DNA of 64,000 nucleotides. Source: Rickettsiales bacterium (GTDB lineage: Bacteria; Pseudomonadota; Alphaproteobacteria; Rickettsiales; Anaplasmataceae). How positions within the stretch are numbered: position 1 is the first letter of the stretch; every line of letters starts with the position of its first letter. Location of the stretch: NCBI GenBank assembly GCA_965262395.1, contig OZ253531.1, forward strand, positions 528,838 to 592,837, given 5' to 3'. This document shows positions 2,476 to 62,862 of this stretch, one piece after another. Below the pieces are notes generated by a model. The model was not told the origin of the DNA and ran no database searches. It saw only the letters and a program-made list of their open reading frames with translations. Made by a program: the position numbers and the translations under genes.

Positions 2476-2663
2476 AGCATTAGTGTACGATTGAGTATCA
2501 CAATCTCAAATTGATACTCCTATTTGCTTAAACATTGATTAATCGTCATCGATCATTATTAAATTCTAGTAATCATTATACTGTGTGGGTTGACGATAAT
2601 TCAGACATATGATATCCTTAAGACAAGTATATATTATATCTTTAATGATTGAAGAGGGCAATA

Positions 2664-26748: not shown

Positions 26749-26867
26749 AGTATTGTCTGTGATGATGAATTCAAATATTTATTTGAGTTCAATAGGAGAA
26801 AGTTTAGATTCTATTTAGATTTTCTTCTATTATTTTTTTTATTTATTCGGATTTTTTTTGTGCCTAT

Positions 26868-26960
26868 GTTCCCTGTTCCCTGTTCCCTGTTCCCTGTTCC
26901 CTGTTCCCTGTTCCCTGTTCCCTGTTCCCTGTTCCCTGTTCCCTGTTCCCTGATTCCCTG
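26868..26960. repeat. heptanucleotide microsatellite (gttccct) x 12 plus one variant unit
   Basis: Read directly. Confidence 0.95.
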
Positions 26961-27210: not shown

Positions 27211-27429
27211 GTGTTAGTGGAGTGTTTGACAGTGTTTGAGTGAGTGTTTGAGTGTTTGAGTGTTTGAGTGTTTGAGTGTTTGAGTGTTTGAGTGTTTGAG
27301 TTTGAGTGTTTGAGTGTTTGAGTGTTTGAGTGTTTGAGTGTTTGAGTGTTTGAGTGTTTGAGTGTTTGAGTGTTTGAGTGTTTGAGTGTTTGAGTGTTTG
27401 AGTGTTTGAGTGTTTGAGTGTTTGAGTGT
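27209..27429. repeat. octanucleotide microsatellite (gagtgttt) x ~24 abutting the tRNA 5' end
   Basis: Read directly. One 6-nt truncated unit lies near 27300, and the last unit runs into tRNA position +1. Confidence 0.95.
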
Positions 27430-27504
27430 TCCTCGGTAGCTCAGTGGTAGAGCAGTTGACTGTTAATCAATTGGTCGTTGGTTCAAGTCCATCCCGGGGA
27501 GCCA
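27430..27504 (+). tRNA. tRNA-Asn (anticodon GUU), CCA encoded
   Basis: Hand-folded cloverleaf. Acceptor tcctcgg/ccgggga, D arm gctc-agtggta-gagc, anticodon stem gttga/tcaat with loop ctGTTaa, T arm gttgg-ttcaagt-ccatc (one U-U mismatch), discriminator g, then cca. Confidence 0.85.
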
Positions 27505-40600: not shown

Positions 40601-43600
40601 AAGGGTAGGCAGCCCTCAGCGAAATATGTTTGCGTCCTTTTTTGAGGGTGCTATAGGTAGTATATTTTCTAATCATGCTGTCAGTAACGCAGAAATAGCA
40701 CAAAACCAAGATTATTGGAATGGGCTTCTAGCACACCCTCATAGAGGTAAGGTTGTTTATTCTAGTGCAGTAATATCCTTTCTTCGTAGAGAAACACTAC
40801 AATCTGGCGATGTAGATGAAAAGCTGAATAATATTCTTGAGGCTGTGGTGACTGCATTAAACCATGAACATATTAAAGGTCATGTGCAAGATGTATTAGC
40901 AATGGATACAGAGGTATTTAGGTTGTTGATAGAGGCTGGATTGTTTAATATTATCAATGATAACAGTATAGATACTGTTGAGGATAAATTTAAAAGATTT
41001 GTTTATGTTTTAGAAAAATTACACCTTGATCAACATATTAATGTCTTGCTTGGTGCTGAAAATAATAAATGTTCGGTGATGTCTATAATTAACAAGCATC
41101 TTCATATTAATAATGACGAAATGATTCCACTGGAATTTGCAGAATTATTTGTAGATAAATTTAAGCCTGATACGCATTTAGCGAATGATTTCGTGATAGA
41201 AAGTACAGAAAAAGCTCCACAAAAAGAGGGTGCTTATGGAGTTATAGACAAAAAAGCTTCTTGTGAAGACATTGTTTTTACAAATAAACCAGTTAGTGCC
41301 ATTTCCAATATTATACTTGATGTTGGTAAACGAGCTACTGTTGCTGTTGATATCAATGTTAATGTGGAGGTAGGTCAAGAGCTTGTTATGGAAGCAGAAG
41401 TAGAGGTAGGGGCAGAAGTTGATGTTCAACAAGAGGAGACTCGTCAAGTACAGGTGGGTAATACGACGGTAGCTGGATTCATCAGAAAAACTGTATATCG
41501 GATTGCGTTTGGTGATGATAGTAAATTCGGAGAGTCTAATGACCTGATTTTTGTCAAGGATAATAAGTTTCTTGATCATGTTGTAAAGAGACTGGAACAT
41601 TTTGTTGAAAATAATCAAATTATTATTGACGACGCTGCTATTAAGTATATCGTTGAGCTGGCACGTAATAAAGAGTATGTCCCTATAAACTCAATTGAGC
41701 AACTAACTGTACTGTTTCCAGGATTAAAATTAGTTGAATATAAAGCAGAGAATTCAGGAGGACGATCTACATATCATATATCATATGACAAAGAGAAAGC
41801 CGAATTTGCTTCTAAAATGTCTACGGGTGGTCGTGATTTTTGGGGTGCTGTGAAAATTCCTGACGATCTTGTAATTAGAAATATATATCAAGGATACAGA
41901 TCAGGCTTTAGCAATATATCTTCAATTGCTAAGGAAATATGGGGAGATGGTAATCCTAATCTTAAGAAAATACTAGAGAAATATAGGGGGTTATTTGATA
42001 CTAAATTTAAAGGGAACACCCTAGATGATAGTACGGTATTTTATGTTATACAGTTCTTATGTGTAATTTATACTAAATCCAATAATATTCAAAGTTCAGA
42101 TGAAAGGCTCTTTTTATCAGAGCAATTATCTATGTTTGATAATCTCCTTGGGACTATATCACGTACTCTCGACAGTGGTGTTATATTCTATTCACAACGC
42201 ATGGATGAATATAGTAATCATTGTGTATCGCAAATGAATAGTACTCAGGAAGTATTTGATTTCAATGCTATTCTTGAGCCATTAGCTGAGATGTCAGATC
42301 AGGCTCTTAATCCTGATAGTGATCGTTCTGCTGATGATTTTACTTCTAAGCTTTATTCATTCGCACGGGCATTGAGTCGTTCAAATGATGAAACAACAAT
42401 AAATCACGCTGTTGAGCATATAAAGCAGTGGGTTTCTACAAGCTGTAACTTAGATTTATTTGTGTCTGCAGAATATTTTATTGGTATGACTAGCTACATG
42501 AGGGAAAAATTTAGATTGGCATCAAGAGATGGCAAGGTATTAACTGGCGAAGATAAATCTACCACTATTTCTAATAAAGGCTATGCCAGCCATCCTTTAC
42601 TGCACTCTCTATTGAGAGGAGATTGTGATTTGGCGAGTATCTATGGTCATATAGGCCTATGGCCTGATTATACAGAGGGGCGTGGTGCAGATTTTGAAAG
42701 TTATGGTAACGAGATACTGCATATATCTCGTAGATGCATTACATTATGTGCAGATATAATTAATTTTTCTGGCAACGATATTCATACTTTGGGTCATCAG
42801 GTTATTGAACTCTCTAATTATATAGTTAAACTCAAAGATCTCATGAAAGTGATAGAGGAAGCTATTAAGCCTAGCCCTGAAAACATGAAAGTGAAATTCT
42901 TAATCTCCAAAAGTGCTGAGTATTTAGCGCAGAGCAAATTATTTACCTATAACGAGATTATTGGGCAACATCTTAGTAGAACGCCAGCAACAAATTTGGA
43001 AGGGAATGGTACGATTAAAGAGAGATTGAAAGCCACATTCGCTAGTAAAGATAAGGAGGTTATTCGTTTTTCTGAAAATGGTAAACAGATGATAGCCGTT
43101 GATCTTCAAAAATCTTTATCTGTTGCGCTTGCAACAGTAAGATTTAATGCCATATCATATGAAGTTTGTAAGGATGAGCAAAATCACCATTTGGTAGACG
43201 TGACGTGGCCTATGGATGCTAAGGGATTTGCGGGTAATCCTACTGTAGGTATGTATGCTAGTAATGATACTGTATGGCATAATAAAAGAGCATTGTATAA
43301 TGAATTATATGCACGTGCTCCATTTATGATACAAGAATTGGCGATATCATATTTTTGTGATTTTCTTTATACAGAGCAACATGGGCAGGATGATGGAAGT
43401 AGACAGTCCTTATCCAAGGCTATGGAGAATGGAGAGTCTGTGATCTTTTTTGAGGAGAGTGAAGCTAACAAAGTTCAAGCTGTATTTGCTAAATTTAATA
43501 AGGATTTTGCTGCGCAAGGAGCTGCTATCTTTTATGATATGATGATAGAAAGAATAGTTACTAATGTTCAAAAATGTGTACAAAATGCTATAGAATCTGC

Positions 43601-46600
43601 TGGTGGTAAAATTGTATTAGCAGATGGCTCTAGTTATACAGGCAGTAAGGATTTCTTTAAAATTAGATATGGTAGTGAAGAAATAGTTAAAGCTCTTAAA
43701 TATGACCCTTGTAATCTTTATTACTTCCTAGAGTGTTATTGTAATCCAGATTTTGCTATTAATAACAAAAAGAGGATGGTCACAACTGGTCGAGCAGTAG
43801 ATGCTAGATTTGCCAGGCCAGAGTTTGATCCTTTGGTTCTTGTAAAAGAGCTTGATGCATATTTTCTTAACATGCGTCTTTCGTATAGGCGTTATTCTAC
43901 ATATAAGGTAACCCAAATAGCATATGAATCAGTAGTGCCTAAAGAATATTTAGATGCATGGAAACAGTGCAAGCTATTATCCCAGCAAATCCTTGGCGCC
44001 CATGACTGTGCTGGTGATGTATTCTCAAAAAGCTTGGAAGTAAAAAGATTGGAAGTTTCACTGGGTGTATTCAACCAAAAGTTCAAGCAGAACACAAAGA
44101 GCTCTATGGATTTGAGGGGTATTCTTAATGAATTAGTTGCAATAGTGAAAGAAGAATGTTGCAGTGCAATGATAGTTCGAAAAATTATTAATGCAGTACA
44201 TTCAGCTGATAATTTTTATGACATAATAGAGTTGAAGAATTTACTATCTCAGATGAAAAATAACGGAAGATTGAAAATCTTTCTTGATATCATATCAGCT
44301 GGTGATAATCCTGGCGTCGGCGCTAGTAACCGAGACTGTAATATGAAGGGTAATTTATTATTCTTAATAAAGAACAATGCGATAAAAGATGGAGTATTAC
44401 AATTAGCTGAATGTAACGATGATGTATTCAGCTTATGGCAAATGATGTACAATAATGAGTTTGGGCGTAAGGGATATGTTGATATCGCCAGTTTCATTCA
44501 GTCTTTCAAATTTCTAAAAGGCATGTTGGGAAGTATCGCGCAAATCATGAGTAGTCAACCTGATAAATATAAAGAAATTGAGACGTCTTTAATCAATATG
44601 GTGAGTAATAATGGTATTGGGGTGCTGAGCTCTCTGTATTCTTTAGTTACATTGGCTGGAACTAATCTCTGCCATCAGATGGATGTAATTGATAGCGTGC
44701 CTATTGAGTATAATGCTGTGACATTAGGATGTCTTAATGCTCTATCAAGTGGTATTATTGCTGTACATGATTATATGGCGCTTAATGAAGAAGATTTAGT
44801 AATTAGTAATGACAGGAAGCACGGTAAAAGTGTTAATGCAATACTTGGGATGCGTAGTGACGAGACCACTATATCAACACAGAATCTGCTCAGTATTAAA
44901 TTTGATGTTAATTGTTCTAAGGTTGAAAAAAATTATAACAGAGCAATGCTTGCCGCTCTTACACGTTGTATAGGATGTCAGATTCCTATCGGTCATTGTA
45001 TTGAGTTCTTCAATATGCTGTATGTGCCAGGAGCTAAAATTGTATTCCACAATGAGATTGCAGTTGATAGTAATTTTGCTCAAAAACAGAAGGATCTTAG
45101 TGATCGTATCCAGGAGCAAGAGCAGTTGCTTTCTCCTAGATATCGTTTTGAATTAGGTCGAATGGTAGTGTGTGCATCAATGAATGATTTGGATTCATTT
45201 GATCTTACAAAAGGCTTATCCCCTAATATTGTTTTATACTTTGCTAGTTTGAATGACACTGTTAAAGACAGCCTTATTACCTATGTAAACGAACATAGCA
45301 TTAGCATAAGATCACTAGAAGATATCATTAAGGAATTAGCGATTCACACAAGTATCTTTGTAGAAACCAATGGATCATGTGTCTTAGAAAAGGCTCATCT
45401 GCAGCAGAGTTTATTAAGTGTGGATAGCATAAGATTTTTGCAAGCACAAAAACAAAAAGGGTTTGCAGCATTATATAGCACTAATGATAATAAGCAAGAT
45501 ATTGCTGAATTAAAAGCTAGAATTGGTGAGCTATGTGAACAACGTAAGAGCGTTATAGCTGAAATAAAAGCAATTGCCGATGAACTCGAGCTAGCTTCTA
45601 AGAGACAGGGTGCAGGACCAGTAGATCAGACCAAGGTGCAGGCTAAAGAACTTAAGGAAGAATCGCTTCGAAGCTTACAAGAGGACATAAGCAAACTACA
45701 GAATCAGTTCAGTGAGACAATAGCTGTGATGAATCAGAAATACTTCCTGCGTTATGAGGTAAATTGCATTAAAGAGAAAGAGGCAAAAGAGCTACGAGGT
45801 GTCGATATTAATCCTTCGGCAGATAGAGTAGAAGTATTCAGCACATTCGATAAAATGATGGGAACTTTAGATGACAATACAGACTTAGAATTCAGATCGG
45901 ATGTGCTGAAATCATTGCATGCAAGGCTATCTACGAAATTACTTGGTCAATGTAAAGAACATCTTCAGAAGAGGATTAATACAATAAGGACATTTCAAAA
46001 TAACTGGAAGAAGCTGATTGCTAGTCTAAGTAAGCATCTAGTATATCAAATGACAGAACTCAGGAAATTAATTAATTCATCTCAATCAAAAAAGTGTGCC
46101 GTTGGTCTAGCGAAATTATTAGAGGAATTCTGTAAACACTATAGCGAAATTACTGCATTACCATATTTAAAGCTTAATACGGAGGATAATCGAGGTGGTC
46201 CTTTGGAGAACATAAGTCAGTTATTTACGTCTATTACTAATTATTGTAGTACCTATAAGTCATGTCCATTCTCATATGAGGGTAACATTGACTCTGGTGA
46301 ATATGAAAAATGGTATCAGACGGTAAGCAAAACTATTAATGACTTCCGATATTTGCTACTAACGACGCTAAAGACTGTTTGGTATGATCCTTTGATAGCA
46401 GATGTAGATGTATTGAATAAAGTAAAAAAGGATATGGATTGCTTGTTATGGGATAAGGTATGCTCTGTAAAACCATGTCAAGCACATAGCGATTGCTACC
46501 ACGAGAGCGCTGTTCAGGATCCATTGAAATTATTATGTATGATTGATAGTGAATCAATAAACATCGATAATGGTTGGGTGGCAAACTTAGGAGACTCACT

Positions 46601-49600
46601 CACTGCATATGACGCCGTTTTAGATAGAGAAGCGAGGTTGTTGGAAGCGGAGCAGAAGATGTTAAATGCCCTTCCTCTCGATCCTGCAAAACAAACAGAA
46701 GCTGTAGATTTTTTCCTTCAGGTAGGGAAGAAAGATGACGCAGTTAAATCGACCTATGAACGGTTATACCAAGAGATACAATGGAATGTATTTGGTAGAA
46801 ACATTGATGACCTTGATGGTAAGACTTCTTATCATCGCACACTAATTTCATCAATACAAAACAGTATGCTATTGGGAGATTATGATAAATTATCTGAGAA
46901 TACAGGTAAGCCAACTGCGATTATTCGCCCTGTTCTTGATACTAAATTTTTATTCGTTATATTAAAACAAATGAACGAATATATGGGAAAATTATCATCT
47001 GAAGATTGGCAATTGTATTACTATACTAGATATTTTAACAATCCAGAACCGGGGAGTTTTAAGAAAGTAACAAGCTGTCTGGAGGGTAACTATAATATAA
47101 TTTGCCAGGAAATTCAGAAATTCATTAACCAGTTTGCTCATGACTCTGAACATACGATTGTAGTAAATCTTAGGAATATTTTGGCTGAATTTCAGAAAAA
47201 TAAGCGTTTTATAGACATTGCTACTGCATTAAGTGGCGGATCTAATCAACAAGGCCCTTGGGCTGTTGATCTGCCTCATATTGCTACAGTGCTTGAAAGG
47301 GAAAAATTAACTCTTGATACTCTATATAAATCGATTAGTGAAATGTTCAGTACTGTATCTGCTGGTTTAGAAGAAATATCTTCATTAATACCGAGTATGT
47401 CTAATAAAGATAGAGCATTCACTATGGTAAGAAAAACCGTGAACGAAGCCTTGGTGGCCAAAGAAGTAGAATCTACTATTGTTCTTGCTACCCCAGTTAC
47501 GCAAGAAATGGTTGGTTTCTCTATTCAGGCGCTTATAATTACTGCGCATCAAGAGAGTCAAGATCAAGTGGAGTGTGAGCAAGAGATAAAAAAATCTAGG
47601 GCTGTATTAGATGAAAGGACTTATTTGCTAGGTATAAAACCTGAGGATCGTCCTGATGAGTGTGAGGTTAAACCTCTAAAGTTAAGTGGTGGAAAAATAT
47701 ATACAAAGGTGAAAAGCTTTCAATGGATTAAACAAACCATTCAGGCAGATGATATAACTGATAGGGATGTGAATCAAAATACCATGATGATGGTGGACGT
47801 ACATAGCTTACTTTCTTATGCAAATGATCAAAATTTAGAGAAAAAGTCTATTCAAGATATCCAGGAAATACTTGCCACTTTAAAAGAAGAATATAACAAT
47901 TCTTCTACTTGTGGAGAAGGACTGGATAAAAATGAATATATTATAACAACTAAGATTAAGATGCTTGCTTGTTTGTCAGAACTATTTTTTAGAAGTACCA
48001 AAAAAGTAGATACGTTAGGTACTATGCCTAATATGGCACAGTTTCTTGTATTATTGCATAATATTCGTGCAAGTGGGGACGGAGGCACAATGTCACAGGT
48101 TGATACAGGTGAAGGTAAGTCTTTAATTATTGTGATATCTGCTGTGATTAGTGCTATATGTGGTGAAAAGGTAGTATGCGTTACACACAATAAGCCACTA
48201 GCAGTAGAAGCACAGCAAAGATACTCTATATTTATGCAAAATGTAAATTTGACCCAATCTGCTATTACTAGTCCATCTGACAAGAACTATGATAGCAATA
48301 TAACTTATGTACCTATAGACAAACTTGTTGCTGACTTTACTATTGATCGAGGACTTCCAAAAGAGAAGCAATGTCTTAGAAGACATTTAAAGAAAAATAG
48401 TAAGATGATGGTTGTTGTTGATGAATGTGACTTTGTGCTGCTGGATAAAGATTCTAGCTCTAATCACAGATTATCTTGTTCTTTGCCAACAGAAGATGAA
48501 AAAAAGCTACTAGACATTAGAATTGCTGTATTAAAGTTTTTAAATAGTGATCTGTATAAAGAAGGTACTTATAAAAGCAAAGAAGAATTATTAAGCATGT
48601 TGAGATATTGGGTATACCAATATATAAATGATGATGATATGAAGAGTATTTTTAATTCAGTTTCTAATAATGAGTGGTTACATGACACTATTTCTTCTTT
48701 CTTGTCTGCGTACGATCTAACAGAAGATCAGGATTTTACTGTTGCTCTGTTCCGCAAGGATAGTGATGGTGAAGTATATAAAATTTCTCCAGTAGCTATT
48801 AATAGTGGTCGTAGAGGAGAGAATTCTTCGTTTAGTCATGGAGTAAGTACTGCTTTAGCTATCATTTTAAAAAATAGTAAAAAGCATAAAGGGAAAAAGA
48901 TCATTGTACCGTCTAATTCCTTAGTAACTGATGTAACTAACGTGGGGCTTACATTTAAGCAGATGCAAGATGCCGGTGATGTAAGGTTTTCATTACTAAG
49001 TGGTACAATTGGTAGTGATACAGAGATTGAAGAAATGTCTAAAGCTTTGAATATTAACAATGTGTGCAAAGTGCCAAGAAATGATGGTAAGAGTAAGCTA
49101 AGCAAAGAAGCAATTCAGTCTGTAGAAAAAGACAAGATAGATACTATAGTTATGATAGAAATAATGAAAGTTATTGCAATAAGGCCTGTATTAATTATTG
49201 TTAATACAATAGCAGAAGCTAACGCATTACGTACCTATGTTGATAATAATAAATTACTGATTGGTAATAGTAAAATCAAACAAGTTTTAAGTATTACTGA
49301 TACTGAGCTTTCTAAAGGTAATTTCTTAAGTACGGAGCTTTATAATATCACTGAAGCAGCTAAAATAGGTAGTGTAACAATTGCAACTCAGGCGGGGGCG
49401 AGGGGTACTAATATTACACCAGAATCGAATGCGTTGAAGAATGGAGGACTGCATGTTGTTATTATAGATGACTTGACCTGTGGTGAGCGTGCAAATAGAC
49501 AAGCAGAAGGTAGGAGTGCTAGGCAAGGACAGCCTGGTAGTGTTGCAAGATATGTGGTGCGTGAAAAACTAGCAAAATTACAACCACGTTCAAAAGAACG

Positions 49601-50936
49601 TGCTATATCATCCCTTTTGGAGTCCCTGTATAAGGAAAGAGAGCAGTTAGCATTAATAAAACGTGCTGATGAGCAAAAGATTCTTTCTATAGTGCATAGT
49701 GAATTAGAAGATTGTGTGTTTAATTTAAGTAGTGCAATGTTATCAAAGGGATATTGTTTGGGGCTAATTAATGAAAATGTTCTAGACGAATTTAAGGATT
49801 TTCTTCGTAATGCCCAGCTGCCTGCAGCAGATAACCCATCATATCAGATAATATTAAGGGCAAAAACCTCGTTAAGTAAATTTATAGAAGCTATAATGTC
49901 TTTGGATAGTGCGAGCCACTCTATTCAAGATGAGGTAAAGGCATTAAGAGAAGAATTTTTGCAAGATCTATTTACATATTTTACTGAGTTTAATAATATT
50001 GATCATCCTAATACTCAGGTGCTTTGTATTACTTGTGAATCTCTTGGTGTTGAGCCCATTCTAAGAAAAGAACTTAATGAATTCCAAAAATATATACATT
50101 CATTCAATGGTCAATTGATAGACGATATATCTAAGTCGAATAAGAACGTTGGGGGTATTGCCGATAGGTGCAATGTTTTAATTATTGGAGGTATTCGAAA
50201 AGCAGGGAGAGACTTTACAAGCAGTATGGAGAAATTAAATCCAAATAATGATAATACTACCAGAATTAATGAGTTATATAGTGATTGGTCTGATAAAATA
50301 TATAAATCTTTCATTCAATATTGTCGAGCAAAAGATAACGAGTTGTTCCCGAGCGTTTCTTCGAACTTTGACTCCTCTTCAGAAGACGATATAGACCAAT
50401 TACAGGAATATCAATTAGCATTATTCAGATCTAAGCCTTATTTGGAAGGCAATAATGATACTAATACCGTATGTACCCGCTATGCTTTATTACAGCGTAA
50501 AAATATTTTACATAAATTGAATGCTCCTAATCTTAGCGAATCTAAGAAACAGAGTTTATTAGTCAGTTTATATGACGGAGGAATAAGTTTCTGCCATGTA
50601 GAAAATGAAGCAAACTTGGGTGCAGACGATGTGGAGATAGGCAATGAAGAAGGCTCATTGAAAGGAAGCGGATCTTTCTCTAGTCTATCATCTTGTAGCA
50701 ATGATACTTCAGAACGGGGATCTAGATCGAGGTACGGGAGCTTAAGATCTTTAGGCTCTGAAACATCTTTTGAGGGTGAAGAAGAACAATCATTGACCAA
50801 TAATCCAGCAAGATTCCCTCCAGCAACACTTCTAAGTGCTGATGAGAAAGATGCAGGGACACCTTTACACTCTTCTTCTGGTACTACGCCAGAAGAGGAT
50901 CGGGATTATCCTGATCAGGGATCACGTTCTGCATAA
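31626..50936 (+). CDS. giant membrane-anchored protein (about 6,436 aa) with a C-terminal SecA-like ATPase motor domain
   Basis: Uninterrupted 19.3-kb ORF (opens at TTG 31596; ATG 31626 follows aggattagga). TM anchor IAIIISSILLLLIAIAIAIIFAVIF followed by SKIKNKTLQSSRQRRQK. SecA motifs lie near the C-terminus. The tail is Ser/Glu-rich. Confidence 0.85.
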   Translation: MSIKHLGSRNIAIIISSILLLLIAIAIAIIFAVIFSKIKNKTLQSSRQRRQKLSAMGIAEKLKAMTEKETVSVLKDFIKSDAEGVPEIVRFCATDPKILGRLNKNEHDTLLKKIYTQVDGRVDIQGLLKKKINIDNVADVALDNYGTSDEFLTATLALINAGSDIKASSIAEKIIYAIAPGDWYTADIKFDEIMTPKLLQVLFSTDKENQSVFAEVLKQIVARAPDEDSVEQYSQEAYNFLQRIIVHSAVNNHLKVKDIHLIVQYIVHTTNDPMRISELINDLADGLQKARSANDNSFFGVDPEQHKYVQSMLVHLFCGVYNELEKKLTEVLDIIKEHGNQNGEYNTRHHALQMSFLRIIPFTNLSFLLPSQPADDHSVVDKNILQLFMILCIHNADIDGNTCTSSFLDPGSVDGLNKERPIDTASINGILIKLSCYSQLIKLIDALLMHKLIDINELASISAAAPTQRSLIYLEEVTSTLFSEDISALLIKILTHDSCSEVSKKYIMKECTDHIKSERFEDNISNICIFVNQLILLGKDGNDWVNEGLFNIFPILMEHSLTPCLKKDCYETVCNLALYLATIANDKCIKILHAGQADLHAQLDGVRVDNGSRTVEDDDVRKNIKQQINNSTMIILACEAKRYVGATPDAQNSQTKDSDNAFALALHLMNVVFVEKKLSFEDLVAIMHIARNNQDKDNLLGMIFHDQDNRLGSTLHDQALVVDGYDDRCDGMMRMALFCIENMIFLSDPTHLAGLIGINSAGQEGRDALNKAQELIQQDGGVFFGDDEKSCAQWARAGANEVACLIHIAKTLRLASIETVSFPNDPRWIDSLEDGMSTTNDDVMTYEQWNDLCKYLSERNKPHLLVPILLYLYKMNAVAQNNQDGDSIDIGNYLAVISLMVDSKAEEDHLFFELTDSWQHFSDQIKENFNEFLKFMCDCVNKSQDQGRRDRLYKSNIFRMLLECAADSNVAVNFSNQNLVRFLLCGAEERKEHEERALAESEYLYELRGRVALRYLEASFVKNSYESSIGTDDEGTPVSVVNMSHEKEVEIDCEKRIDSIIQMNLDHPESNLISALTNLLHQKEGALSAEMKKRAVSIETLLRSNIEKQEGDENVPEVGDDPAEEEQLSVAEKVSKLNQSITLLTVDQQKYYKLLSTMFDHIVNNLMIHYENCKEYLCAIIPCPEDEGADRDEKVGSQRKHEIFLYMYKKLGIFLMQRSMVPYRNPDQSTLSYNEIRIKILGDILELLNSRKQTKVIQGVSCMVFGYFVSTIGSIESEQVDEYIKYINRALVVFSQYDDGFDQLNIATFVLDSYIICCNKGANNANALIHDISMVGIEISFVSDCIVYLKKLDRKNKVNELYESILDIVRTSATASDSKNIPVIYLSIMSGLRYPDVNNMQNLEGADDITEAADNCSDLSSKMFLAMVDKGYDIYSLITRIINDINADTFIVDKAERLKNFALCVFNTGNREAILAVGTLLVFSDDVIDTSQYLEEDQTREMTSYFARAFFKTYGTMPMVEDQHTDRFNQLIGKLKCNKDKLMTVFNIAKYAVVDCGLERNNLYKKESFYSTSLINLLFGNENKNENELASYDLTFLLCFIEPLMNDEHHDMHRLMGCDENGVNQLMCNYALALQGGNLSWFRLLENELLVTEPVPEFIKQVLGIENDYKFPTVVNGKVKGIDLLCAVIPDDLTVVPEYVKRLMNNLAKVICSTNNFAVSFCHGHHFSQSSYSKLFQKKILLDDNNRLTDFACSVFHSVDRSKENPLNICVTVDGEIKPLISVILEVSHDVDPKLLDYLLKDNNNVPYVSSDSKSPNCMPMIRDGIECTEEIRLAKLTILKHQIIKKLNKDPLSDISVDNFGAICDKAITYMNEEETEKFIEDVLREFFESFAHEATEDHDKECERFLKAVPLLNIFFKKYSASTRTIDFSKCAGFSNCMARYIPMCSAHNATEVVSLLNSLTTITGNKVAQDIKIKDPNSSSVTCLDKVWLSYAVELINSPSAEGQQKFVMLRALLEFQDYRNGLNVDRMSFLFQLLNDNGKYKGIGGLESYIANIASKKEETNDAKDRQDRERNDRNIHRFFLHNSAVSEEDKLYVHEVLQDIILELSNAKKANDAVVQDIGKMISAWIEEIELLSLESVHSLAMGLFYVSNHMDDEFIQKLLLLIYRDIELSIDNKKVDGLQSIFNMVLMLAIESKISSGQELIETLDNICSKKVTELTDNMKQNVLTIFCTFIDGLKNHDNPKIDCMIMLSPISKLINYLELVGGGHIFNDATIGEKPIQKMIRYKSITYFVFIAEILTFYKKKGASSTLPSEKEIKDLIALLKKNNQKINCAGLVNINQGLSPCITEKGFDVIIRNILTHEGGLEVAIDLMKNAFSTEGKEYGGIFMDISAENGTYTSLIQIVHEIQDPVLSELFLQKMNEEIAKGYCLYPMNESIREDKIQCLLSLMYTEPKMVLPLVRKMCIIQNSRVSNSDTPPVLKEFVYITHNCHGDELSFLRILQCSILGEADDAQREEVMNVLCEMVNTYDLPIAGNIIDIDILRILDFCLIQKDMPLHKIDKGLSKVCKIHNCSIWGIKAVGGQSIFSTVLKQMRKNVTLIQSNKETPGFRVSISNLMYMLCNFDMTKYPDHNDEAYLANKKDYDVALGLLIDLAHISLHDGYGSIISLNEKFDIGNGRSISLLEIPNVAASFMGMKPLHVRKTPALKEGAQKTPALKEGAQKTLALKEGTQRTPELMVKARTNFLSNVDVLLLTHSQNVALEKYDDYLEYLFICYEQASNIQDHERLDVLKKSFASFLQAIVDNNLPLYAEFRYKFYNMFILCINSGDKDCFNNFSTIIKRVVPNEQSCFSYLSNNKLDNELGAEDTTVASFIRLLLIRQYNEVSNIDSVMISNFVGRLVRSKVELEDQRMLDILFSLVTLQSYLLDLELKNDPTYMHGKCTVKYCMNEVMDQFIGFFDGCNESSFGRQNDKTIDINHSVPWDLIFRVRVGSPQRNMFASFFEGAIGSIFSNHAVSNAEIAQNQDYWNGLLAHPHRGKVVYSSAVISFLRRETLQSGDVDEKLNNILEAVVTALNHEHIKGHVQDVLAMDTEVFRLLIEAGLFNIINDNSIDTVEDKFKRFVYVLEKLHLDQHINVLLGAENNKCSVMSIINKHLHINNDEMIPLEFAELFVDKFKPDTHLANDFVIESTEKAPQKEGAYGVIDKKASCEDIVFTNKPVSAISNIILDVGKRATVAVDINVNVEVGQELVMEAEVEVGAEVDVQQEETRQVQVGNTTVAGFIRKTVYRIAFGDDSKFGESNDLIFVKDNKFLDHVVKRLEHFVENNQIIIDDAAIKYIVELARNKEYVPINSIEQLTVLFPGLKLVEYKAENSGGRSTYHISYDKEKAEFASKMSTGGRDFWGAVKIPDDLVIRNIYQGYRSGFSNISSIAKEIWGDGNPNLKKILEKYRGLFDTKFKGNTLDDSTVFYVIQFLCVIYTKSNNIQSSDERLFLSEQLSMFDNLLGTISRTLDSGVIFYSQRMDEYSNHCVSQMNSTQEVFDFNAILEPLAEMSDQALNPDSDRSADDFTSKLYSFARALSRSNDETTINHAVEHIKQWVSTSCNLDLFVSAEYFIGMTSYMREKFRLASRDGKVLTGEDKSTTISNKGYASHPLLHSLLRGDCDLASIYGHIGLWPDYTEGRGADFESYGNEILHISRRCITLCADIINFSGNDIHTLGHQVIELSNYIVKLKDLMKVIEEAIKPSPENMKVKFLISKSAEYLAQSKLFTYNEIIGQHLSRTPATNLEGNGTIKERLKATFASKDKEVIRFSENGKQMIAVDLQKSLSVALATVRFNAISYEVCKDEQNHHLVDVTWPMDAKGFAGNPTVGMYASNDTVWHNKRALYNELYARAPFMIQELAISYFCDFLYTEQHGQDDGSRQSLSKAMENGESVIFFEESEANKVQAVFAKFNKDFAAQGAAIFYDMMIERIVTNVQKCVQNAIESAGGKIVLADGSSYTGSKDFFKIRYGSEEIVKALKYDPCNLYYFLECYCNPDFAINNKKRMVTTGRAVDARFARPEFDPLVLVKELDAYFLNMRLSYRRYSTYKVTQIAYESVVPKEYLDAWKQCKLLSQQILGAHDCAGDVFSKSLEVKRLEVSLGVFNQKFKQNTKSSMDLRGILNELVAIVKEECCSAMIVRKIINAVHSADNFYDIIELKNLLSQMKNNGRLKIFLDIISAGDNPGVGASNRDCNMKGNLLFLIKNNAIKDGVLQLAECNDDVFSLWQMMYNNEFGRKGYVDIASFIQSFKFLKGMLGSIAQIMSSQPDKYKEIETSLINMVSNNGIGVLSSLYSLVTLAGTNLCHQMDVIDSVPIEYNAVTLGCLNALSSGIIAVHDYMALNEEDLVISNDRKHGKSVNAILGMRSDETTISTQNLLSIKFDVNCSKVEKNYNRAMLAALTRCIGCQIPIGHCIEFFNMLYVPGAKIVFHNEIAVDSNFAQKQKDLSDRIQEQEQLLSPRYRFELGRMVVCASMNDLDSFDLTKGLSPNIVLYFASLNDTVKDSLITYVNEHSISIRSLEDIIKELAIHTSIFVETNGSCVLEKAHLQQSLLSVDSIRFLQAQKQKGFAALYSTNDNKQDIAELKARIGELCEQRKSVIAEIKAIADELELASKRQGAGPVDQTKVQAKELKEESLRSLQEDISKLQNQFSETIAVMNQKYFLRYEVNCIKEKEAKELRGVDINPSADRVEVFSTFDKMMGTLDDNTDLEFRSDVLKSLHARLSTKLLGQCKEHLQKRINTIRTFQNNWKKLIASLSKHLVYQMTELRKLINSSQSKKCAVGLAKLLEEFCKHYSEITALPYLKLNTEDNRGGPLENISQLFTSITNYCSTYKSCPFSYEGNIDSGEYEKWYQTVSKTINDFRYLLLTTLKTVWYDPLIADVDVLNKVKKDMDCLLWDKVCSVKPCQAHSDCYHESAVQDPLKLLCMIDSESINIDNGWVANLGDSLTAYDAVLDREARLLEAEQKMLNALPLDPAKQTEAVDFFLQVGKKDDAVKSTYERLYQEIQWNVFGRNIDDLDGKTSYHRTLISSIQNSMLLGDYDKLSENTGKPTAIIRPVLDTKFLFVILKQMNEYMGKLSSEDWQLYYYTRYFNNPEPGSFKKVTSCLEGNYNIICQEIQKFINQFAHDSEHTIVVNLRNILAEFQKNKRFIDIATALSGGSNQQGPWAVDLPHIATVLEREKLTLDTLYKSISEMFSTVSAGLEEISSLIPSMSNKDRAFTMVRKTVNEALVAKEVESTIVLATPVTQEMVGFSIQALIITAHQESQDQVECEQEIKKSRAVLDERTYLLGIKPEDRPDECEVKPLKLSGGKIYTKVKSFQWIKQTIQADDITDRDVNQNTMMMVDVHSLLSYANDQNLEKKSIQDIQEILATLKEEYNNSSTCGEGLDKNEYIITTKIKMLACLSELFFRSTKKVDTLGTMPNMAQFLVLLHNIRASGDGGTMSQVDTGEGKSLIIVISAVISAICGEKVVCVTHNKPLAVEAQQRYSIFMQNVNLTQSAITSPSDKNYDSNITYVPIDKLVADFTIDRGLPKEKQCLRRHLKKNSKMMVVVDECDFVLLDKDSSSNHRLSCSLPTEDEKKLLDIRIAVLKFLNSDLYKEGTYKSKEELLSMLRYWVYQYINDDDMKSIFNSVSNNEWLHDTISSFLSAYDLTEDQDFTVALFRKDSDGEVYKISPVAINSGRRGENSSFSHGVSTALAIILKNSKKHKGKKIIVPSNSLVTDVTNVGLTFKQMQDAGDVRFSLLSGTIGSDTEIEEMSKALNINNVCKVPRNDGKSKLSKEAIQSVEKDKIDTIVMIEIMKVIAIRPVLIIVNTIAEANALRTYVDNNKLLIGNSKIKQVLSITDTELSKGNFLSTELYNITEAAKIGSVTIATQAGARGTNITPESNALKNGGLHVVIIDDLTCGERANRQAEGRSARQGQPGSVARYVVREKLAKLQPRSKERAISSLLESLYKEREQLALIKRADEQKILSIVHSELEDCVFNLSSAMLSKGYCLGLINENVLDEFKDFLRNAQLPAADNPSYQIILRAKTSLSKFIEAIMSLDSASHSIQDEVKALREEFLQDLFTYFTEFNNIDHPNTQVLCITCESLGVEPILRKELNEFQKYIHSFNGQLIDDISKSNKNVGGIADRCNVLIIGGIRKAGRDFTSSMEKLNPNNDNTTRINELYSDWSDKIYKSFIQYCRAKDNELFPSVSSNFDSSSEDDIDQLQEYQLALFRSKPYLEGNNDTNTVCTRYALLQRKNILHKLNAPNLSESKKQSLLVSLYDGGISFCHVENEANLGADDVEIGNEEGSLKGSGSFSSLSSCSNDTSERGSRSRYGSLRSLGSETSFEGEEEQSLTNNPARFPPATLLSADEKDAGTPLHSSSGTTPEEDRDYPDQGSRSA
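39741..39840. repeat. intragenic 3.3 x 30-bp repeat encoding (K/R)TPALKEGAQ
   Basis: aaaacacctgctttaaaggaaggtgcacaa starts at 39741, 39771 and 39801, with a partial unit at 39831. Confidence 0.85.
48000..49560 (+). other. SecA-type DEAD motor region (NBD1, PPXD-like insert, NBD2) inside the giant ORF
   Basis: QVDTGEGKSL (48096..48125), VVCVTHNKPLAVE, NITYVPIDKLVADFTIDR, VVVDECDFVLLDK (48411..), INSGRRGENSSFSHGVSTALA, LLSGTIGSDTEIEEMSKALNINNVCKVPRN, RPVLIIVNTIAEAN, VTIATQAGARGTNI (49374..49415), GGLHVVIIDD...RQAEGRSARQGQPGS (..49541). Confidence 0.75.
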
Positions 50937-51521: not shown

Positions 51522-53123
51522 ATGGGCATTGTCTTAAATAAGAAAACAATAAGTATAATTGCTGCTTCTGCGGCATTACTGGCTATTATCTTTTTAATAG
51601 TAGTAGGGTCTCTTATTGCTGCTGGTGTATGTAAATATAGAGGAAAACATATCAGCAAAGATGAGAAAAACGCTAAGAGAGAACGTGCTGCTGAATTACT
51701 GTTAGCAAAAATGGAACCAAAAGAGGAAGAAGAAGTATCTGATGATGATAAAAAAATACCTAAGTCTCAAAAGGTTGCTGAGGCCTTGATCCATGCTTAT
51801 CCAAATAATTATAAGGGTCAGAAGTTAGACAGGTACGAATATCCTAATGTTCTTACTGGTGTTAAATTCTCTAGGACTTTTATGGATAGAGCTTTGATCA
51901 ATAATGATAGGGAATTAACAATACAAACTTACTGTCCTGCGAATATTTTAGACAAAGAATTGCTTAAGTCATATAGGTCTTACTATTCGAGAAATAATGA
52001 CCCAGACTCTAAGGAATCTGAATCTGAATCTGAATCTGATCTTCGCAATTATACTGGAAAGGCAGTAGAAACATTGCAAGTTTATTTTGATCCTTCTAGT
52101 AAAATGCTGATGTTATTGGCGGATCAAGATGAGTCGAAAAAAGAGCAGAAAGTAGGGGCCAATGCCTATTTACATGGCTTTAAACGAGACAACGATGTTG
52201 GTTCAGATGGGTTTTATTTAGTTGGAAATATGTTTAATGGGCATAGTCCTGGCGAGGACTTTGCTATTACTATTGATGATCTAGATAGGGCGGTTAATCA
52301 AGGAGAGATATTTGCCTTGCCAGCTAGCAATGTAGATGATTTCTTCGCTAAAGATGAGGCTAAAGATGGGAAGGAGGAATGTACAGATTTATACTATATA
52401 AGGCATGATTTTGCGATTATGAGACGGCTGAATTGTCATAATTCACAACATGATAAGTCAGTGAAACATGGTTCTCATGCTTTATTCACAGGGATTTATT
52501 TAGATAGTGATGCAGTAATTAATAAAGATAATAATTTGTTTAAGGACGGACATGAGAATGCCTTTACGCATGATGAAATGAGTAAAATTATTAAAGAGCA
52601 TAAAATTAGTATTAATTATCGTGATAACTCATCTCACCCTCCTGTATTTACTGAGAATATTAAGAAGCAGCGTGCATTAGTTGGACAGGGTAATTATGAT
52701 AGAAGATTTTCTACGCAGGCATTAAAGAAAGGTATATATTTTTTAGAAGTTAGCAGAAATAAGGATGATACGGAAAATGAATTTCATATTGGTTATTCTC
52801 GTGATTCAGGAGAAATATTAAAGGAAGCGAGTAAGGTTGTTAGTGATTTGCTAGGTGGTAAGAGCAAGAAATTGAGTGACGCAAAAGAAGAGTTGATAGA
52901 AAAAAGAGAGAATATCTCTTTCTGTCGAGATGAAGGATATGTCGTAAAAGATCCATTACGTGTGTATTCTTATATGCAGGTATCTTTGGAAAAGGCCTTG
53001 AAAGATGGATACTTAACACACGCAATACCAAAGCAGGAGAAGCCAGCAGAGCAGAAGAAGCCAGCGGAGCAGGAGAAACAGAGCAGCGGAGCAGGAGAAG
53101 CCAGCGGAGCAAGAGAAACCTAA
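51522..53123 (+). CDS. hypothetical N-terminally membrane-anchored protein (533 aa) with a C-terminal (E/K)KPAEQ repeat; the tail probably continues to 53241 in the +1 frame
   Basis: TM ISIIAASAALLAIIFLIVVGSLIAAGV followed by KYRGKHISKDEKNAKRER. No motif recognised in the body. 18-bp repeats at 53037..53120. Confidence 0.7.
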   Translation: MGIVLNKKTISIIAASAALLAIIFLIVVGSLIAAGVCKYRGKHISKDEKNAKRERAAELLLAKMEPKEEEEVSDDDKKIPKSQKVAEALIHAYPNNYKGQKLDRYEYPNVLTGVKFSRTFMDRALINNDRELTIQTYCPANILDKELLKSYRSYYSRNNDPDSKESESESESDLRNYTGKAVETLQVYFDPSSKMLMLLADQDESKKEQKVGANAYLHGFKRDNDVGSDGFYLVGNMFNGHSPGEDFAITIDDLDRAVNQGEIFALPASNVDDFFAKDEAKDGKEECTDLYYIRHDFAIMRRLNCHNSQHDKSVKHGSHALFTGIYLDSDAVINKDNNLFKDGHENAFTHDEMSKIIKEHKISINYRDNSSHPPVFTENIKKQRALVGQGNYDRRFSTQALKKGIYFLEVSRNKDDTENEFHIGYSRDSGEILKEASKVVSDLLGGKSKKLSDAKEELIEKRENISFCRDEGYVVKDPLRVYSYMQVSLEKALKDGYLTHAIPKQEKPAEQKKPAEQEKQSSGAGEASGARET

Positions 53124-53882: not shown

Positions 53883-55094
53883 TTAAAGCAAGCTTTTTTG
53901 TAAGTCGAAATTCAATTCTGGTTGTCCTTTTTCTTCAACGTGTTTTAGTACTTTATCAATCTGTGAAATAGTTAGATCAGAGATATTGACTTGTTGATTA
54001 CGCTCTGTGGCCAGCTTTTGTTCTTCTAATAAATAACCTGCTGTTAAGAAAAGCTGGAATGCACCGTGGCTATCAAAACTATTGTCTATTAATTCAGGAG
54101 ATAATTTGTGCAATTTTACCTTTCCTAGATCATCACCTGCTTCGAAGCTATATCCAAGTTTATTGCTACCAAAAACGGCATTTAATGATTCTGGATTTAA
54201 GATTATTGTACGGAATGAAGTAGCTAAATACGCAGAATTAGAGTTCCTATTCGCACATAAATTTATGCCATTGTAATTCTCGGGCCCAGATATACTAAGC
54301 TTTTTTAGCCTCTCAAAGAACTCAGGATCAAATTCTTCTATAAAATCACGTTTCACTTCTGCATATGCAGTTCTATCGTCATTATTTCCAGGTTCATTTT
54401 TATTTTTTAAACTGCCTATGTCTCTTTTGTCGTACTCTATTTTCATCTCTGGGGACATTTTTAATGGATCTATGTCTACGGCCTCTTCTACAATCTCTCT
54501 TACTACTGTAAAACTGTGACCTTCGTCAAACCCGCCTAGAAAGGCTGCTTCTCCAGTATCGCCTCTTTCACCACCAAAAAAATGTATTTCCTCTTCATGG
54601 ATTACTACATTGCCAAAGTCCACTACACTATTTTTTCCAGGATAAGCAGTAAGTAATCCCTTAAGTCCGAAGTTGATTCCAGGGTATATATCTAGATCGT
54701 TGAGTACTTTATTCATATATTCGGCTATGTTAGCCCCTTCTTTTAGTTCTTTTGCAGCGAATGAAGTAAATTTTTCATCAGCATTCAATACGATTTGTGC
54801 ATCATTATTGTAGGTAGCAAATCTTCCCCGTAGAGCTTTATTAGTAAAGAGTCGGACAACATTAGGAGGGTTGTGAGCATCTCTTTCCACTACGTCCCCT
54901 CGTGTATCTACTGCCCCTGCGGGTAATTCCAAATTTTCAAATTTCAATAAATCATGTTTGATTCCACAATTTATGAGCCTAATTGCGTATTCATTGAATT
55001 TTGATGAACTTACATTAGATAAAGACCATTTTAATTGACTTATTAAACCAGATATCGCAGCAACTGGATAAGAATCTATAGTTGTTCTTCCCAC
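53883..55094 (-). CDS. NUDT9-like Nudix hydrolase family protein (ADP-ribose pyrophosphatase type)
   Basis: [23 protein letters not shown] compares with NUDT9 [36 protein letters not shown] compares with [25 protein letters not shown] compares with LEAGDDAGKVKWV. Starts with GTG. Confidence 0.55.
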   Translation of the reverse strand: [403 protein letters not shown]

Positions 55095-57612: not shown

Positions 57613-59016
57613 TTAATTATCTAATGACTGACTAGACATCTGTGAATCATTTATGTTTATTGCATTAATCACAGACCTTCTTGTGTTTTTAGAGCTTACT
57701 TCAGTTTGAGGTAGCTCTTCTGTATGAAATATGGAAGTAGTTTTATTAAAATAATTGATAATGCTCATAGTAGATTCTAGTAGTTGGGGTATCATCTCTT
57801 CTTCCATAGTGTCTGGTATTAACTCTATAATCTCTTCTTTTTTTGTTTGTCTGGAGTCTAAGATATTTTGTATTAAGTCCAAGTGTTGTATTGCTAAAGA
57901 ATCTAATAGATTAATTAATAGTGTGTGCTCAGGTGCTGGTTCGTGTGCATGTAGAGCAAAATCTCGGAAGAATAATCGTAATTTATTTGATAATGCATGA
58001 TTGTCTCTATTCACTCTATTTAATACATGAATAATAGATAAAATAGATTGGTAATCTATTTTATGTAATAGTGATTGAAAGGCATCACGATTCCTGAAAT
58101 ATATGGAAAATAACTTTATACTTTCTTCTTCATTGAGATGTAATTTATCTAATATGCTTGCAATCATATCTAATTCATATCTACCTTGCATTGGCGCATT
58201 ATTACATCCATTTCCTATCTCTTTTTTGTGGTGTTGAGCGGGGCCAGCAGTGTCTGTGGGGGTTGCAATGATTTTGTTTTTCTTTCTCATTAAGGTGCAT
58301 TTTTTGCTCAATATATATCTTTGTGCATGTTCTAATATAATATTTATCTCTTGTGGGGTTGTGTTAGATATATGTATGGATTCCATTTTTTTTTCTGACA
58401 ACTGGCTAACTAGGAATATATTGTCTGTAGTCCAGTGGTTTGTTGTAAATAAGAATTTTCCAAGTATCGTTGGCAATGTATCGAGTATTTGCTTTTCACA
58501 GGGGTTTTTTGCTAATAATTGTATATATTGCAACAGGAGTTCTTGTTGAGGTTTATTAAATTCTTGAGTTTCATTTATCAATGATTTTATGAATTTAGCA
58601 TTGGGATCAACTGCGAGTAACACCCTTTGCATGTATTCCAGCTGTAGAGTGCAATGACCTTTAATTATCAATCGTTGCGTTGCCTGTAAATCTTTTATGG
58701 ACAATGTTAAACATTCAACTTGTGCCTTGAGATGTTGTACTAGTAGTTCCGTGCCATTTGTGCCATTTAAGATTTGTCCCTGTGTAATCTTGGAGATTAT
58801 TTTGAATTTTACTAATTTATTGGTTATTTCATATAGTTCTTCTCGGCTAATGGTTTTGTTGTTAATCCTAGCCAATATTTCTAATATTTGTAGGTGTAGA
58901 TTTACTAATGGTTCTTCTAGGCTCTTCTTGGTTTGTGTAAATCTTTTTGTAGATTTGTAATTTCCATTACTAATATTAGTACTGTTGAAAATGCCATTAG
59001 ATTTATTACTATTCAT
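57613..59016 (-). CDS. hypothetical protein (467 aa), non-repetitive and helical-looking
   Basis: Long ORF with no motif recognised. Asn/Ser-rich termini. Confidence 0.6.
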   Translation of the reverse strand: MNSNKSNGIFNSTNISNGNYKSTKRFTQTKKSLEEPLVNLHLQILEILARINNKTISREELYEITNKLVKFKIISKITQGQILNGTNGTELLVQHLKAQVECLTLSIKDLQATQRLIIKGHCTLQLEYMQRVLLAVDPNAKFIKSLINETQEFNKPQQELLLQYIQLLAKNPCEKQILDTLPTILGKFLFTTNHWTTDNIFLVSQLSEKKMESIHISNTTPQEINIILEHAQRYILSKKCTLMRKKNKIIATPTDTAGPAQHHKKEIGNGCNNAPMQGRYELDMIASILDKLHLNEEESIKLFSIYFRNRDAFQSLLHKIDYQSILSIIHVLNRVNRDNHALSNKLRLFFRDFALHAHEPAPEHTLLINLLDSLAIQHLDLIQNILDSRQTKKEEIIELIPDTMEEEMIPQLLESTMSIINYFNKTTSIFHTEELPQTEVSSKNTRRSVINAININDSQMSSQSLDN

Positions 59017-62231: not shown

Positions 62232-62862
62232 TTAAATAATTTTTGTTAATAACTTTACTATAACACTAAGATTAAAGGTATGTGCGCTTATTTACAAGTA
62301 GAATAATAAACATTCACATTGATATATAAATGTTTATTCAAGGTCAGTGTTTACTTGACCTGAACGCTTATTTATGTTATCCTTTAAGTGGATGGGGGAG
62401 TGCTGATTTATTTGTTAGTGCTTATATGCCCTTGAGCCATAAATAAACTGAAAGGGAACTGTCCCTGGCAAGAATGCGTTCTTGTTATATGGTGCCCACC
62501 TGTACAAAACAGTCTCAGGTCTCTTATGTCGCGACGGTAGAATTGGTTCCTCTGTCCATGTTTATCACGTTCTGTGGTATTTTGTTCGTCTTACATATTT
62601 TTCTTGTTTTTATTTTTTATTTGTAATAAACTTCAGGTTGAGATATTGGCAGTTGACTTGTGAGTTGTGTTGTCTTCTCGGTTAGTAGGCCTTATTACTG
62701 ATTCGTTTGCTCTGCAACCTTTGTGTTTTGTGAGCGCATCGAGATTATTGGTTCATTATGTATGCCTCTTGTTAGAAGATTAAGTAGGTGGTGTGTAGTG
62801 GTGCTTTCTTGATGTTAAGCGTTTCCTTTAATGTTTTATAATTATTTATTATAGGTAGTGGT

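Follow-up and report, generated by a model that had tools for sequence, protein, structure and literature searches.

SecA is seen as a motor dedicated to the Sec translocon. Here we describe a divergent SecA-like module, predicted to be a SecA-type motor, at the C-terminal end of a giant protein from a Rickettsiales bacterium (Anaplasmataceae). The gene lies in a 64,000-nt stretch of DNA (assembly GCA_965262395.1, contig OZ253531.1, positions 528,838-592,837 of the forward strand), the whole of which is called the window and whose first letter is position 1. SecA-like modules without the tail of the enzyme have already been reported from giant proteins and effectors, and the present module is a new, very divergent example.

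In most giant proteins of Omnitrophota and some of Actinobacteria, divergent SecA DEAD and preprotein-binding domains occur in the absence of scaffold and wing; the modules lie near C-terminal transmembrane anchors, a role in exporting the giant itself has been proposed for them, and the same genomes reportedly encode a normal SecA elsewhere (West-Roberts et al. 2023, 10.1101/2023.11.21.568195). An equivalent architecture class was recovered in a 2026 preprint (10.64898/2026.06.07.730766). SecA-like ATPase domains, with a predicted role in facilitating secretion, are found in giant actinobacterial toxins (Kaur et al. 2021), and 'SecA-like helicase-related domains' are among the variable C-terminal effector domains of the surface-anchored effectors of Amoebophilus (Zhang et al. 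2012, PMC3482391). A 'SecA DEAD-like' protein of Legionella fallonii (lfa2470) has been listed as eukaryote-like (Gomez-Valero et al. 2014). Stand-alone SecA_DEAD proteins encoded in conserved GAF/M50/HlyD operons have been proposed to power non-Sec export (Kamneva et al. 2015, PMC4452313).

The giant gene lies within an uninterrupted open reading frame of about 19.3 kb (31596-50936, + strand; 6,446 codons counted from TTG). A public protein collection contains an identical protein (P0008) of 6,436 aa; on account of this length, ATG 31626 and not TTG 31596 is probably the true start. The SecA-type motor corresponds to residues ~5,460-5,990 of the giant (window ~48,000-49,565), within the last sixth of the protein. 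It was studied in a segment of 1,146 aa (window 47496-50933), in which segment residue n is residue n+5300 of the reading frame. The features of the gene and of its motor are as follows.

31626-50936 (+): giant gene with a 6,436-aa product, given by the longest open reading frame from TTG 31596 with ATG 31626 as probable start
47763-48017 (+): helical lead-in packed on the motor in the model, segment residues 90-174 (AlphaFold pLDDT 82-97), overlapping the N-terminal part of the SecA_DEAD match
48018-48461 (+): NBD1 with Q182, Walker A TGEGKS and Walker B DECD (Pfam SecA_DEAD, invariant columns, alignment to Bacillus subtilis SecA, model)
48105-48122 (+): Walker A, TGEGKS
48420-48431 (+): Walker B, DECD
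48462-48935 (+): putative degenerate PPXD-like insert, helices then a beta hairpin, between Walker B and motif III (model, hhalign)
48936-49565 (+): return of NBD1 (motif III, SGT), then NBD2 (P-loop_SecA, PDB alignment, column audit, model)
49398-49412 (+): motif V, ARGTN, with Asn in place of the invariant Asp
49500-49538 (+): motif VI, QAEGRSARQGQPG

A preliminary description of this DNA had placed a SecA DEAD motor at 48000-49560 and quoted nine motif strings in SecA order. All nine are found, in that order, in the translation of 31596-50936 (+), and the coordinates bracket the motor from before Walker A to beyond motif VI.

By sequence and predicted structure, the C-terminal module is a divergent SecA-type DEAD motor, on which four independent lines (Pfam, NCBIfam, a PDB sequence search and AlphaFold/Foldseek) agree. 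Pfam SecA_DEAD (PF07517) matches segment residues 110-338 with E=5e-18 (65.8 bits, cut-off 24.6 bits), well on the significant side of the limit of 1e-3 that the preliminary description had named; generic Pfam DEAD and ResIII each score ~24 bits on the motor (E about 4e-5). NCBIfam models of SecA and SecA2 match segment residues 197-746 with E-values down to 3e-24. Their equivalog cut-offs are not reached: the best score is 85 bits against 862, secA gives 54 against 800 and the SecA2 models 40-66 against 725-1,100. A phmmer search of PDB sequences with the motor returned SecA and SecA2 chains only (best E=1.5e-12), in an alignment that takes in both the lobe with Walker A and B and the lobe with motifs V and VI, the latter aligned to SecA residues 453-529. 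The AlphaFold2 model of the segment, built on a 62-sequence alignment, has pLDDT values of 80-97 across segment residues 90-690. In a Foldseek search of the PDB with the motor model, only SecA and SecA2 entries occupy ranks 1-36 (E=1.9e-24 to 7e-12); the target-normalised TM-score is 0.79-0.81 for the DEAD motor of Escherichia coli on its own (3BXZ) and 0.63-0.65 for SecA bound to SecY. Beyond SecA, the next structural neighbours are helicases (DinG, Pol theta and Brr2), of which DinG is the best match at 2.8e-8. The fold is thus far nearer to SecA than to generic SF2 helicases, and an insert is present at the PPXD position, as had been claimed. The second lobe, NBD2, was also part of the preliminary claim. 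Here P-loop_SecA (PF21090) gives 21.5 bits, under Pfam's 27-bit cut-off, but the phmmer alignment and the TM-scores of the model speak for an NBD2.

Homologues were collected by an exhaustive HMMER search, used instead of a word-indexed search that was nearly blind to the family (3 and 4 matches). At E<=1e-3 the exhaustive search gave 2,370 representatives, of which 418 reached E<=1e-10. The two best matches after the giant itself are P0009 (6,718 aa) and P0010 (4,219 aa). P0008, P0009, P0010 and the RNase E encoded in the window are all recorded on a 1,687,069-bp contig, and P0009 and P0010 are very probably paralogues of the giant in the same 1.69-Mb genome. Among the next-best 40 matches, P-loop_SecA is found in 40/40, SecA_DEAD in 39/40 and SecA_PP_bind in 32/40; 29 Pfam families are matched in these proteins, and the 25 commonest do not include SecA_SW. 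Their partner domains include Ank, UCH, OTU, RickCE, DnaJ and TPR. The canonical W-x-E-H-L motif of the wing and scaffold occurs in 0/148 non-canonical proteins and is missing from all of the top 150 matches of the exhaustive search. Twelve large members (2,600-4,300 aa) are mostly unannotated besides the motor and Ank repeats.

The phmmer scores of the giant's motor are graded, from 201 and 119 bits with the two paralogues through a median of 75 (up to 106) with the family to 29-55 with canonical SecA, to which a typical family member aligns with 146-184 bits. In a neighbour-joining tree without support values, the three giants group with other members of 1,300-3,100 aa. From the gradation of scores, the motor is a long-branch member of this wing-less SecA-like family, nearer to it than to housekeeping SecA. 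The family is widespread, known informally from the literature and without a curated model, and its modules form part of giant proteins, polymorphic toxins and effector-like proteins in host-associated bacteria.

Members of the family come from diverse sources. One (P0002) is found on human-gut contigs, where it is followed by an Imm8 immunity gene and preceded by a gene whose product joins LRR, a SecA-like module and the toxin domain TreTu_C. Two others (P0001 and P0014) adjoin Ank or LRR giants of >2,400 aa, and P0048 is from a gammaproteobacterial metagenome-assembled genome. A choanoflagellate protein (P0124, Monosiga brevicollis XP_001750534.1, 3,678 aa) has a wing-less SecA-like module at its C-terminus; together with that of L. 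fallonii lfa2470, this module hints at transfer between bacteria and eukaryotes. A human gut metagenome contig (L010, 1-13932) encodes two adjacent large proteins with a SecA-like module in each. One of them carries LRR and TreTu_C, the other UCH and is followed by an Imm8 gene, a polymorphic-toxin-style arrangement in a Firmicutes-like context.

The PPXD-like insert claimed in the preliminary description is present as an ordered element of ~155 aa (pLDDT 84-95), composed of helices (segment residues 333-407), a beta hairpin (414-433) and a further helix (450-459). Its Pfam counterpart SecA_PP_bind (PF01043) has no match in the giant at E<=1. With hhalign, the insert of the three giants aligns to that of the wing-less family at E=3e-13 over 126 columns, and the insert of the family aligns to the canonical PPXD at E=1e-22; compared directly, the giants' insert and the canonical PPXD give a weak but collinear alignment (E=0.003, probability 10%). 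In the giant, seven PPXD positions with 82-97% conservation among relatives carry other residues (Y414F, D434A, T437S, R445S, W446F, H451S and Y490M). We read the insert as a homologous but degenerate PPXD, connected to the canonical domain transitively through the family profile. The claim therefore stands for the presence of an insert, whose PPXD ancestry is probable, while nearly all of the conserved residues are lost.

The catalytic positions were compared in the 62-sequence alignment. The giant keeps the invariant columns Q182, T204-G-E-G-K208, D309-E310-x-D312 and G503-T504, as well as R636-G637, Q669, G672-R673, R676, G678 and G681. The lone exception is the Asp of motif V (GRGTD), found in 61/61 other sequences including both paralogues and replaced by Asn in the giant (ARGTN). 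Q182, TGEGK, DExD, SGT, R636, Q669, GR672-673, R676, G678 and G681 are common to the giant and both paralogues, at a pairwise identity of only 26-30%. The statement that all catalytic positions are retained consequently applies to the Walker A Lys, the Walker B Asp-Glu and the motif VI arginines, and is slightly too strong in view of the motif V Asp. As the invariant columns are kept except for this Asp, the ATPase is likely, not certain, to be active.

The motor is followed by the C-terminal 474 residues, in which two parts are distinguished.

49581-50579 (+): all-helical region after the motor (model helices at segment residues 704-1027, pLDDT about 50-80)
50580-50933 (+): acidic Ser/Gly/Thr-rich tail, predicted to be disordered, segment residues 1029-1146 (pLDDT 26-32, translation)

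No recognisable SecA scaffold, wing or zinc finger was detected after the motor, as the preliminary description had noted by eye. SecA_SW (PF07516) and SEC-C (PF02810) have no Pfam match at E<=1, and a phmmer search of the PDB with the post-motor region found nothing. By hhalign, the C-region of the giants has no significant similarity to the C-domains of canonical SecA (E=0.4), nor does the post-motor region of the wing-less family resemble it clearly (E=0.26); the latter region itself matches the canonical C-domain only at E=0.07. The C-regions of the paralogues scarcely align with one another. Of the positions conserved after the motor in the family, R715 and Trp825 (alignment A3), Trp825 is Leu in the giant. 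Folded alone, the post-motor region gave an unusable model (mean pLDDT 46.9). The model of the full segment has a 53-residue helix directly after NBD2, at modest confidence; we do not claim it as a SecA scaffold, since Pfam, hhalign and the PDB phmmer search were all without signal.

Outside the motor, the giant is almost devoid of recognisable features, and those found are listed here.

31656-31730 (+): predicted N-terminal transmembrane anchor, protein residues 11-35 (Kyte-Doolittle scan, peak 3.3)
39740-39840 (+): tandem repeat of 30 nt in 3.4 copies, encoding KTPALKEGAQ units (Tandem Repeats Finder and translation)
44433-45377 (+): region of ~315 aa common to the three giants, protein residues 4270-4584 (BLASTP between paralogues)

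The Pfam search gave no significant domain in residues 1-5400 and no nucleic-acid-binding domain anywhere in the giant. The KTPALKEGAQ repeat is the sole tandem repeat of note, the N-terminal region being otherwise non-repetitive. Residues 11-35 form the only strongly hydrophobic segment in the Kyte-Doolittle scan, flanked by charges of about +2 before and about +6 after. Following the positive-inside rule, the more positive charge C-terminal of the helix would place the bulk of the giant (~6,400 residues) in the cytoplasm. The protein is acidic overall and contains 2.1% Cys, evenly distributed along its length, which suggests that its main mass faces a reducing, ATP-containing compartment rather than the periplasm or the exterior of the cell. 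Scans for promoters and terminators at the ends of the gene gave nothing informative.

P0009 and P0010 share the plan of one N-terminal transmembrane helix and a C-terminal motor. Among the three giants, BLASTP finds similarity in two places only, the motor together with the preceding ~300 residues and the 315-aa region (E=1.6e-29 to P0009, and 1.6e-5), and the remaining ~4,900 residues of the giant have diverged past BLASTP detection. On the strength of this pattern, the motor is the most constrained part of the three proteins. The 315-aa region has no Pfam match and no PDB sequence match; it may be an undescribed domain. Together the three paralogues comprise ~17,400 residues, roughly 3% of the 1.69-Mb genome if all are on one chromosome.

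How the giant compares with the described systems depends on which of them is considered. It resembles the giants of Omnitrophota and Actinobacteria in being very large, membrane-anchored and mostly domain-free, with a divergent, long-branch motor near the C-terminus and no SecA_SW. Those proteins, however, come from free-living predators, reach 30,000-85,000 aa and contain numerous transmembrane helices along with numerous enzymatic or adhesion domains, whereas this one has 6,436 aa, just one helix at the N-terminus, no Pfam domain besides the motor and a PPXD below Pfam detection, in a small alphaproteobacterial genome. With the Amoebophilus effectors and the Ank, OTU, UCH and RickCE fusions it shares a probable endosymbiont setting, an N-terminal anchoring device and a C-terminal SecA-like module without wing or scaffold; wing-less modules of the fusion type are the best non-paralogous sequence matches of its motor. 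The fusion proteins differ in that they are mostly of 800-2,000 aa, have a Pfam-detectable PPXD in 32/40 and often carry host-targeting domains. They also share a conserved post-motor region, to which that of the giants has no significant similarity. Anchoring differs as well, by lipobox and APD domains in Amoebophilus and by a transmembrane helix in the giant.

Housekeeping SecA (B. subtilis 1M6N/1TF5, E. coli 2FSF) has the same order NBD1-insert-NBD2 and the same core ATPase motifs, the motif V Asp excepted, and is the best structural match. The giant's motor is nevertheless only 14-18% identical to it, lacks a detectable helical scaffold, wing, two-helix finger or SEC-C zinc motif, and is fused behind ~5,400 unrelated residues. 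Accessory SecA2 (Mycobacterium 4UAQ, Clostridioides 6SXH, Listeria) is a second, specialised SecA-type motor besides the housekeeping one, and SecA2 chains are among the top matches; it is, however, a stand-alone protein of ~780 aa that keeps its scaffold domain, whereas the giant's motor is fused and without a detectable scaffold. The SecA_DEAD proteins of Kamneva et al. (PMC4452313) are also non-canonical, and non-Sec export has been proposed for them, but they are stand-alone members of a GAF/M50/HlyD operon. The giant gene has no such operon, and an association with type I secretion of the kind described by these authors was rejected because no HlyD, M50 or GAF genes adjoin it.

Besides the giant, the window encodes a UbiB-like kinase, RNase E (database copy P0162) and GshA. 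The closest genome matches of UbiB are from Anaplasmataceae, at 45-50% identity, and the relatives of RNase E are at most about 45-48% identical, all named matches being alphaproteobacterial. Synteny with Anaplasmataceae loci around UbiB was not seen, and a scan of a genome collection with the C-terminus of the giant gave no match. These relatives, the many orphan reading frames, the 1.69-Mb contig and the G+C content of the window (~34%) suggest that the organism is probably a deep-branching, obligate intracellular alphaproteobacterium.

Tentatively, we read the giant's motor as a built-in, ATP-driven module for handling or exporting polypeptides at the bacterial inner membrane, an interpretation that we rate as possible and somewhat short of probable. 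The giant would be anchored, probably in the bacterial inner membrane, by its one N-terminal helix, with the remainder in an ATP-containing, reducing compartment. The motor would hydrolyse ATP, and its NBD1/NBD2 cycle would grip or move polypeptide as in SecA. Canonical SecY docking would not be possible, because the scaffold and the two-helix finger are undetectable; the N-terminal helix would tether the motor in place of the SecY-docking parts, and the motor would serve the secretion or handling of the giant itself or of a partner protein. This interpretation is favoured by the SecA identity, the retained catalytic residues and the strong constraint of the motor, by its place in the wing-less family, by the N-terminal helix and the Cys content as signs of the compartment, by the link of the SecA-like family to secreted toxins, seen at the P0002/Imm8 locus with its LRR-SecA-like-TreTu_C neighbour, and by published proposals that such modules facilitate secretion (West-Roberts et al. 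2023; Kaur et al. 2021). Several points weigh against it. No secretion-system or chaperone gene was found adjoining the giant gene, the only HlyD-family gene (14349-15812) being ~16 kb upstream among unrelated genes. The exchange of Asp for Asn in motif V may weaken or alter ATPase coupling, and the loss of PPXD residues weakens the case for SecA-like clamping of polypeptides. The module is at the far C-terminus, the usual site of the active domain of an effector and not of a trafficking domain, and in Amoebophilus modules of this kind are classed as effector domains (Zhang et al. 2012, PMC3482391). Topology and host association are themselves predicted, and the searchable literature contains no experimental test of any member of these SecA-like groups. 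A bolder version would make the three giants a distinct class of inner-membrane-tethered, helical, multi-thousand-residue proteins, whose stripped motor, with its re-modelled clamp insert, threads or extracts polypeptide without SecY, for example in exporting the giant, or deploying it on the surface, towards the host. We consider this decidedly unlikely; if true, the SecY-independent motor would amount to a protein-translocation ATPase complete in itself and distinct from the Sec, Tat and type I-IX schemes.

Alternatively, the module could be an effector ATPase aimed at the host. The giant, whole or as a processed fragment from its C-terminus, would be exposed to the host cytosol or delivered into it, and there the motor would use host ATP to remodel a host protein or act on a host translocation or organelle-import step. 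The partners in the family are typical eukaryote-targeting domains (Ank, OTU, UCH, the RickCE deubiquitinase and DnaJ), the module is C-terminal in most members, and the Amoebophilus effectors, the eukaryote-like L. fallonii protein and the choanoflagellate protein all carry comparable modules; the genome context, suggestive of a small-genome intracellular alphaproteobacterium, also fits. However, the hydrophobicity of the N-terminal helix (Kyte-Doolittle 3.3) would make export less likely than insertion into the inner membrane of the bacterium itself, the tail at the C-terminus is acidic where many type IV signals are basic, and the absence of an adjoining secretion-system or chaperone gene counts here too. 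In the Firmicutes polymorphic toxins with immunity genes, moreover, the module occurs in proteins whose target is bacterial. On balance we find an effector function doubtful. If the ~6,400 residues are in the bacterial cytoplasm, as predicted, the giant might also be a membrane-tethered scaffold whose motor has been re-purposed from polypeptides to an RNA or DNA helicase-like enzyme or a nucleotide-dependent switch. The lost PPXD signature, the altered motif V, the weak Pfam DEAD and ResIII matches (E about 4e-5) and the position of DinG, Pol theta and Brr2 as next structural neighbours would agree with such a change, which nevertheless seems unlikely: the Foldseek E-value for SecA is 16 orders of magnitude better than that for the helicases, the ordered insert homologous to the PPXD of the family is retained, and Pfam found no nucleic-acid-binding domain in the giant. 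Motif V and the PPXD residues, together with the P-loop_SecA score under the Pfam cut-off and the long branch, could finally be taken as signs of decay to a catalytically dead domain kept for structure only. That is very improbable in view of the intact 19.3-kb frame and of the conservation of the Walker A Lys, the Walker B Asp-Glu, motif III, the motif V Arg and both motif VI arginines in three otherwise diverged paralogues.

Some further observations concern the surroundings of the gene. Long open reading frames without a significant Pfam family are unusually frequent in the window: 652-2475 (-), 2649-4178 (+), 9452-10777 (+), 19591-20478 (+), 20689-21573 (-), 28698-30776 (+), 51522-53123 (+), 53883-55094 (-) and 57613-59016 (-). 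Two of them have matches below threshold only, 652-2475 to an acidic-repeat model and 28698-30776 to Dna2_Rift. Such richness in orphan frames is typical of the effector-rich genomes of intracellular bacteria. Anti-phage defence was considered, and PADLOC gave no match for the motor or its neighbours. A CI/LexA-like repressor with a helix-turn-helix and peptidase S24 (21791-22426, +; PHROG transcriptional repressor, 1e-34) is followed by several small orphan frames; it could be the LexA of the cell or a remnant of a mobile element.

The frame 24198-25430 (+) encodes a Gly/Ser-rich protein of 410 aa with ~14 tandem units of 15 aa, SY(D/N)(V/M)GGNPAHMSGGG, and has no Pfam or PHROG match. The repeat has a DNA period of 45 (24657-25309) and accounts for a local rise in G+C to 0.44; two long antisense frames over the gene are probably repeat artefacts. 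Near-perfect microsatellites are present at 26867-26960 (TGTTCCC x13) and 27241-27430 (TGAGTGTT x24), the latter abutting the 5' end of tRNA-Asn (27430-27504). A 6S RNA was identified downstream of the UbiB-like kinase gene (62397-62553, +; Rfam RF00013, 60 bits, gathering score 46).

Taken purely as sequence, this locus adds to a pattern that genome surveys have already reported. Hundreds of divergent proteins keep the motor and clamp of SecA, lack its SecY-docking parts and are joined to toxins, host-targeting domains or stretches of thousands of unannotated residues, which suggests that the SecA motor has a second, uncharacterised use. The giant is an extreme case, in which the motor is the most conserved part of three giant proteins of what seems to be an obligate intracellular alphaproteobacterium. 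The role of the motor, if worked out, would bear on how very large effector and surface proteins are handled.

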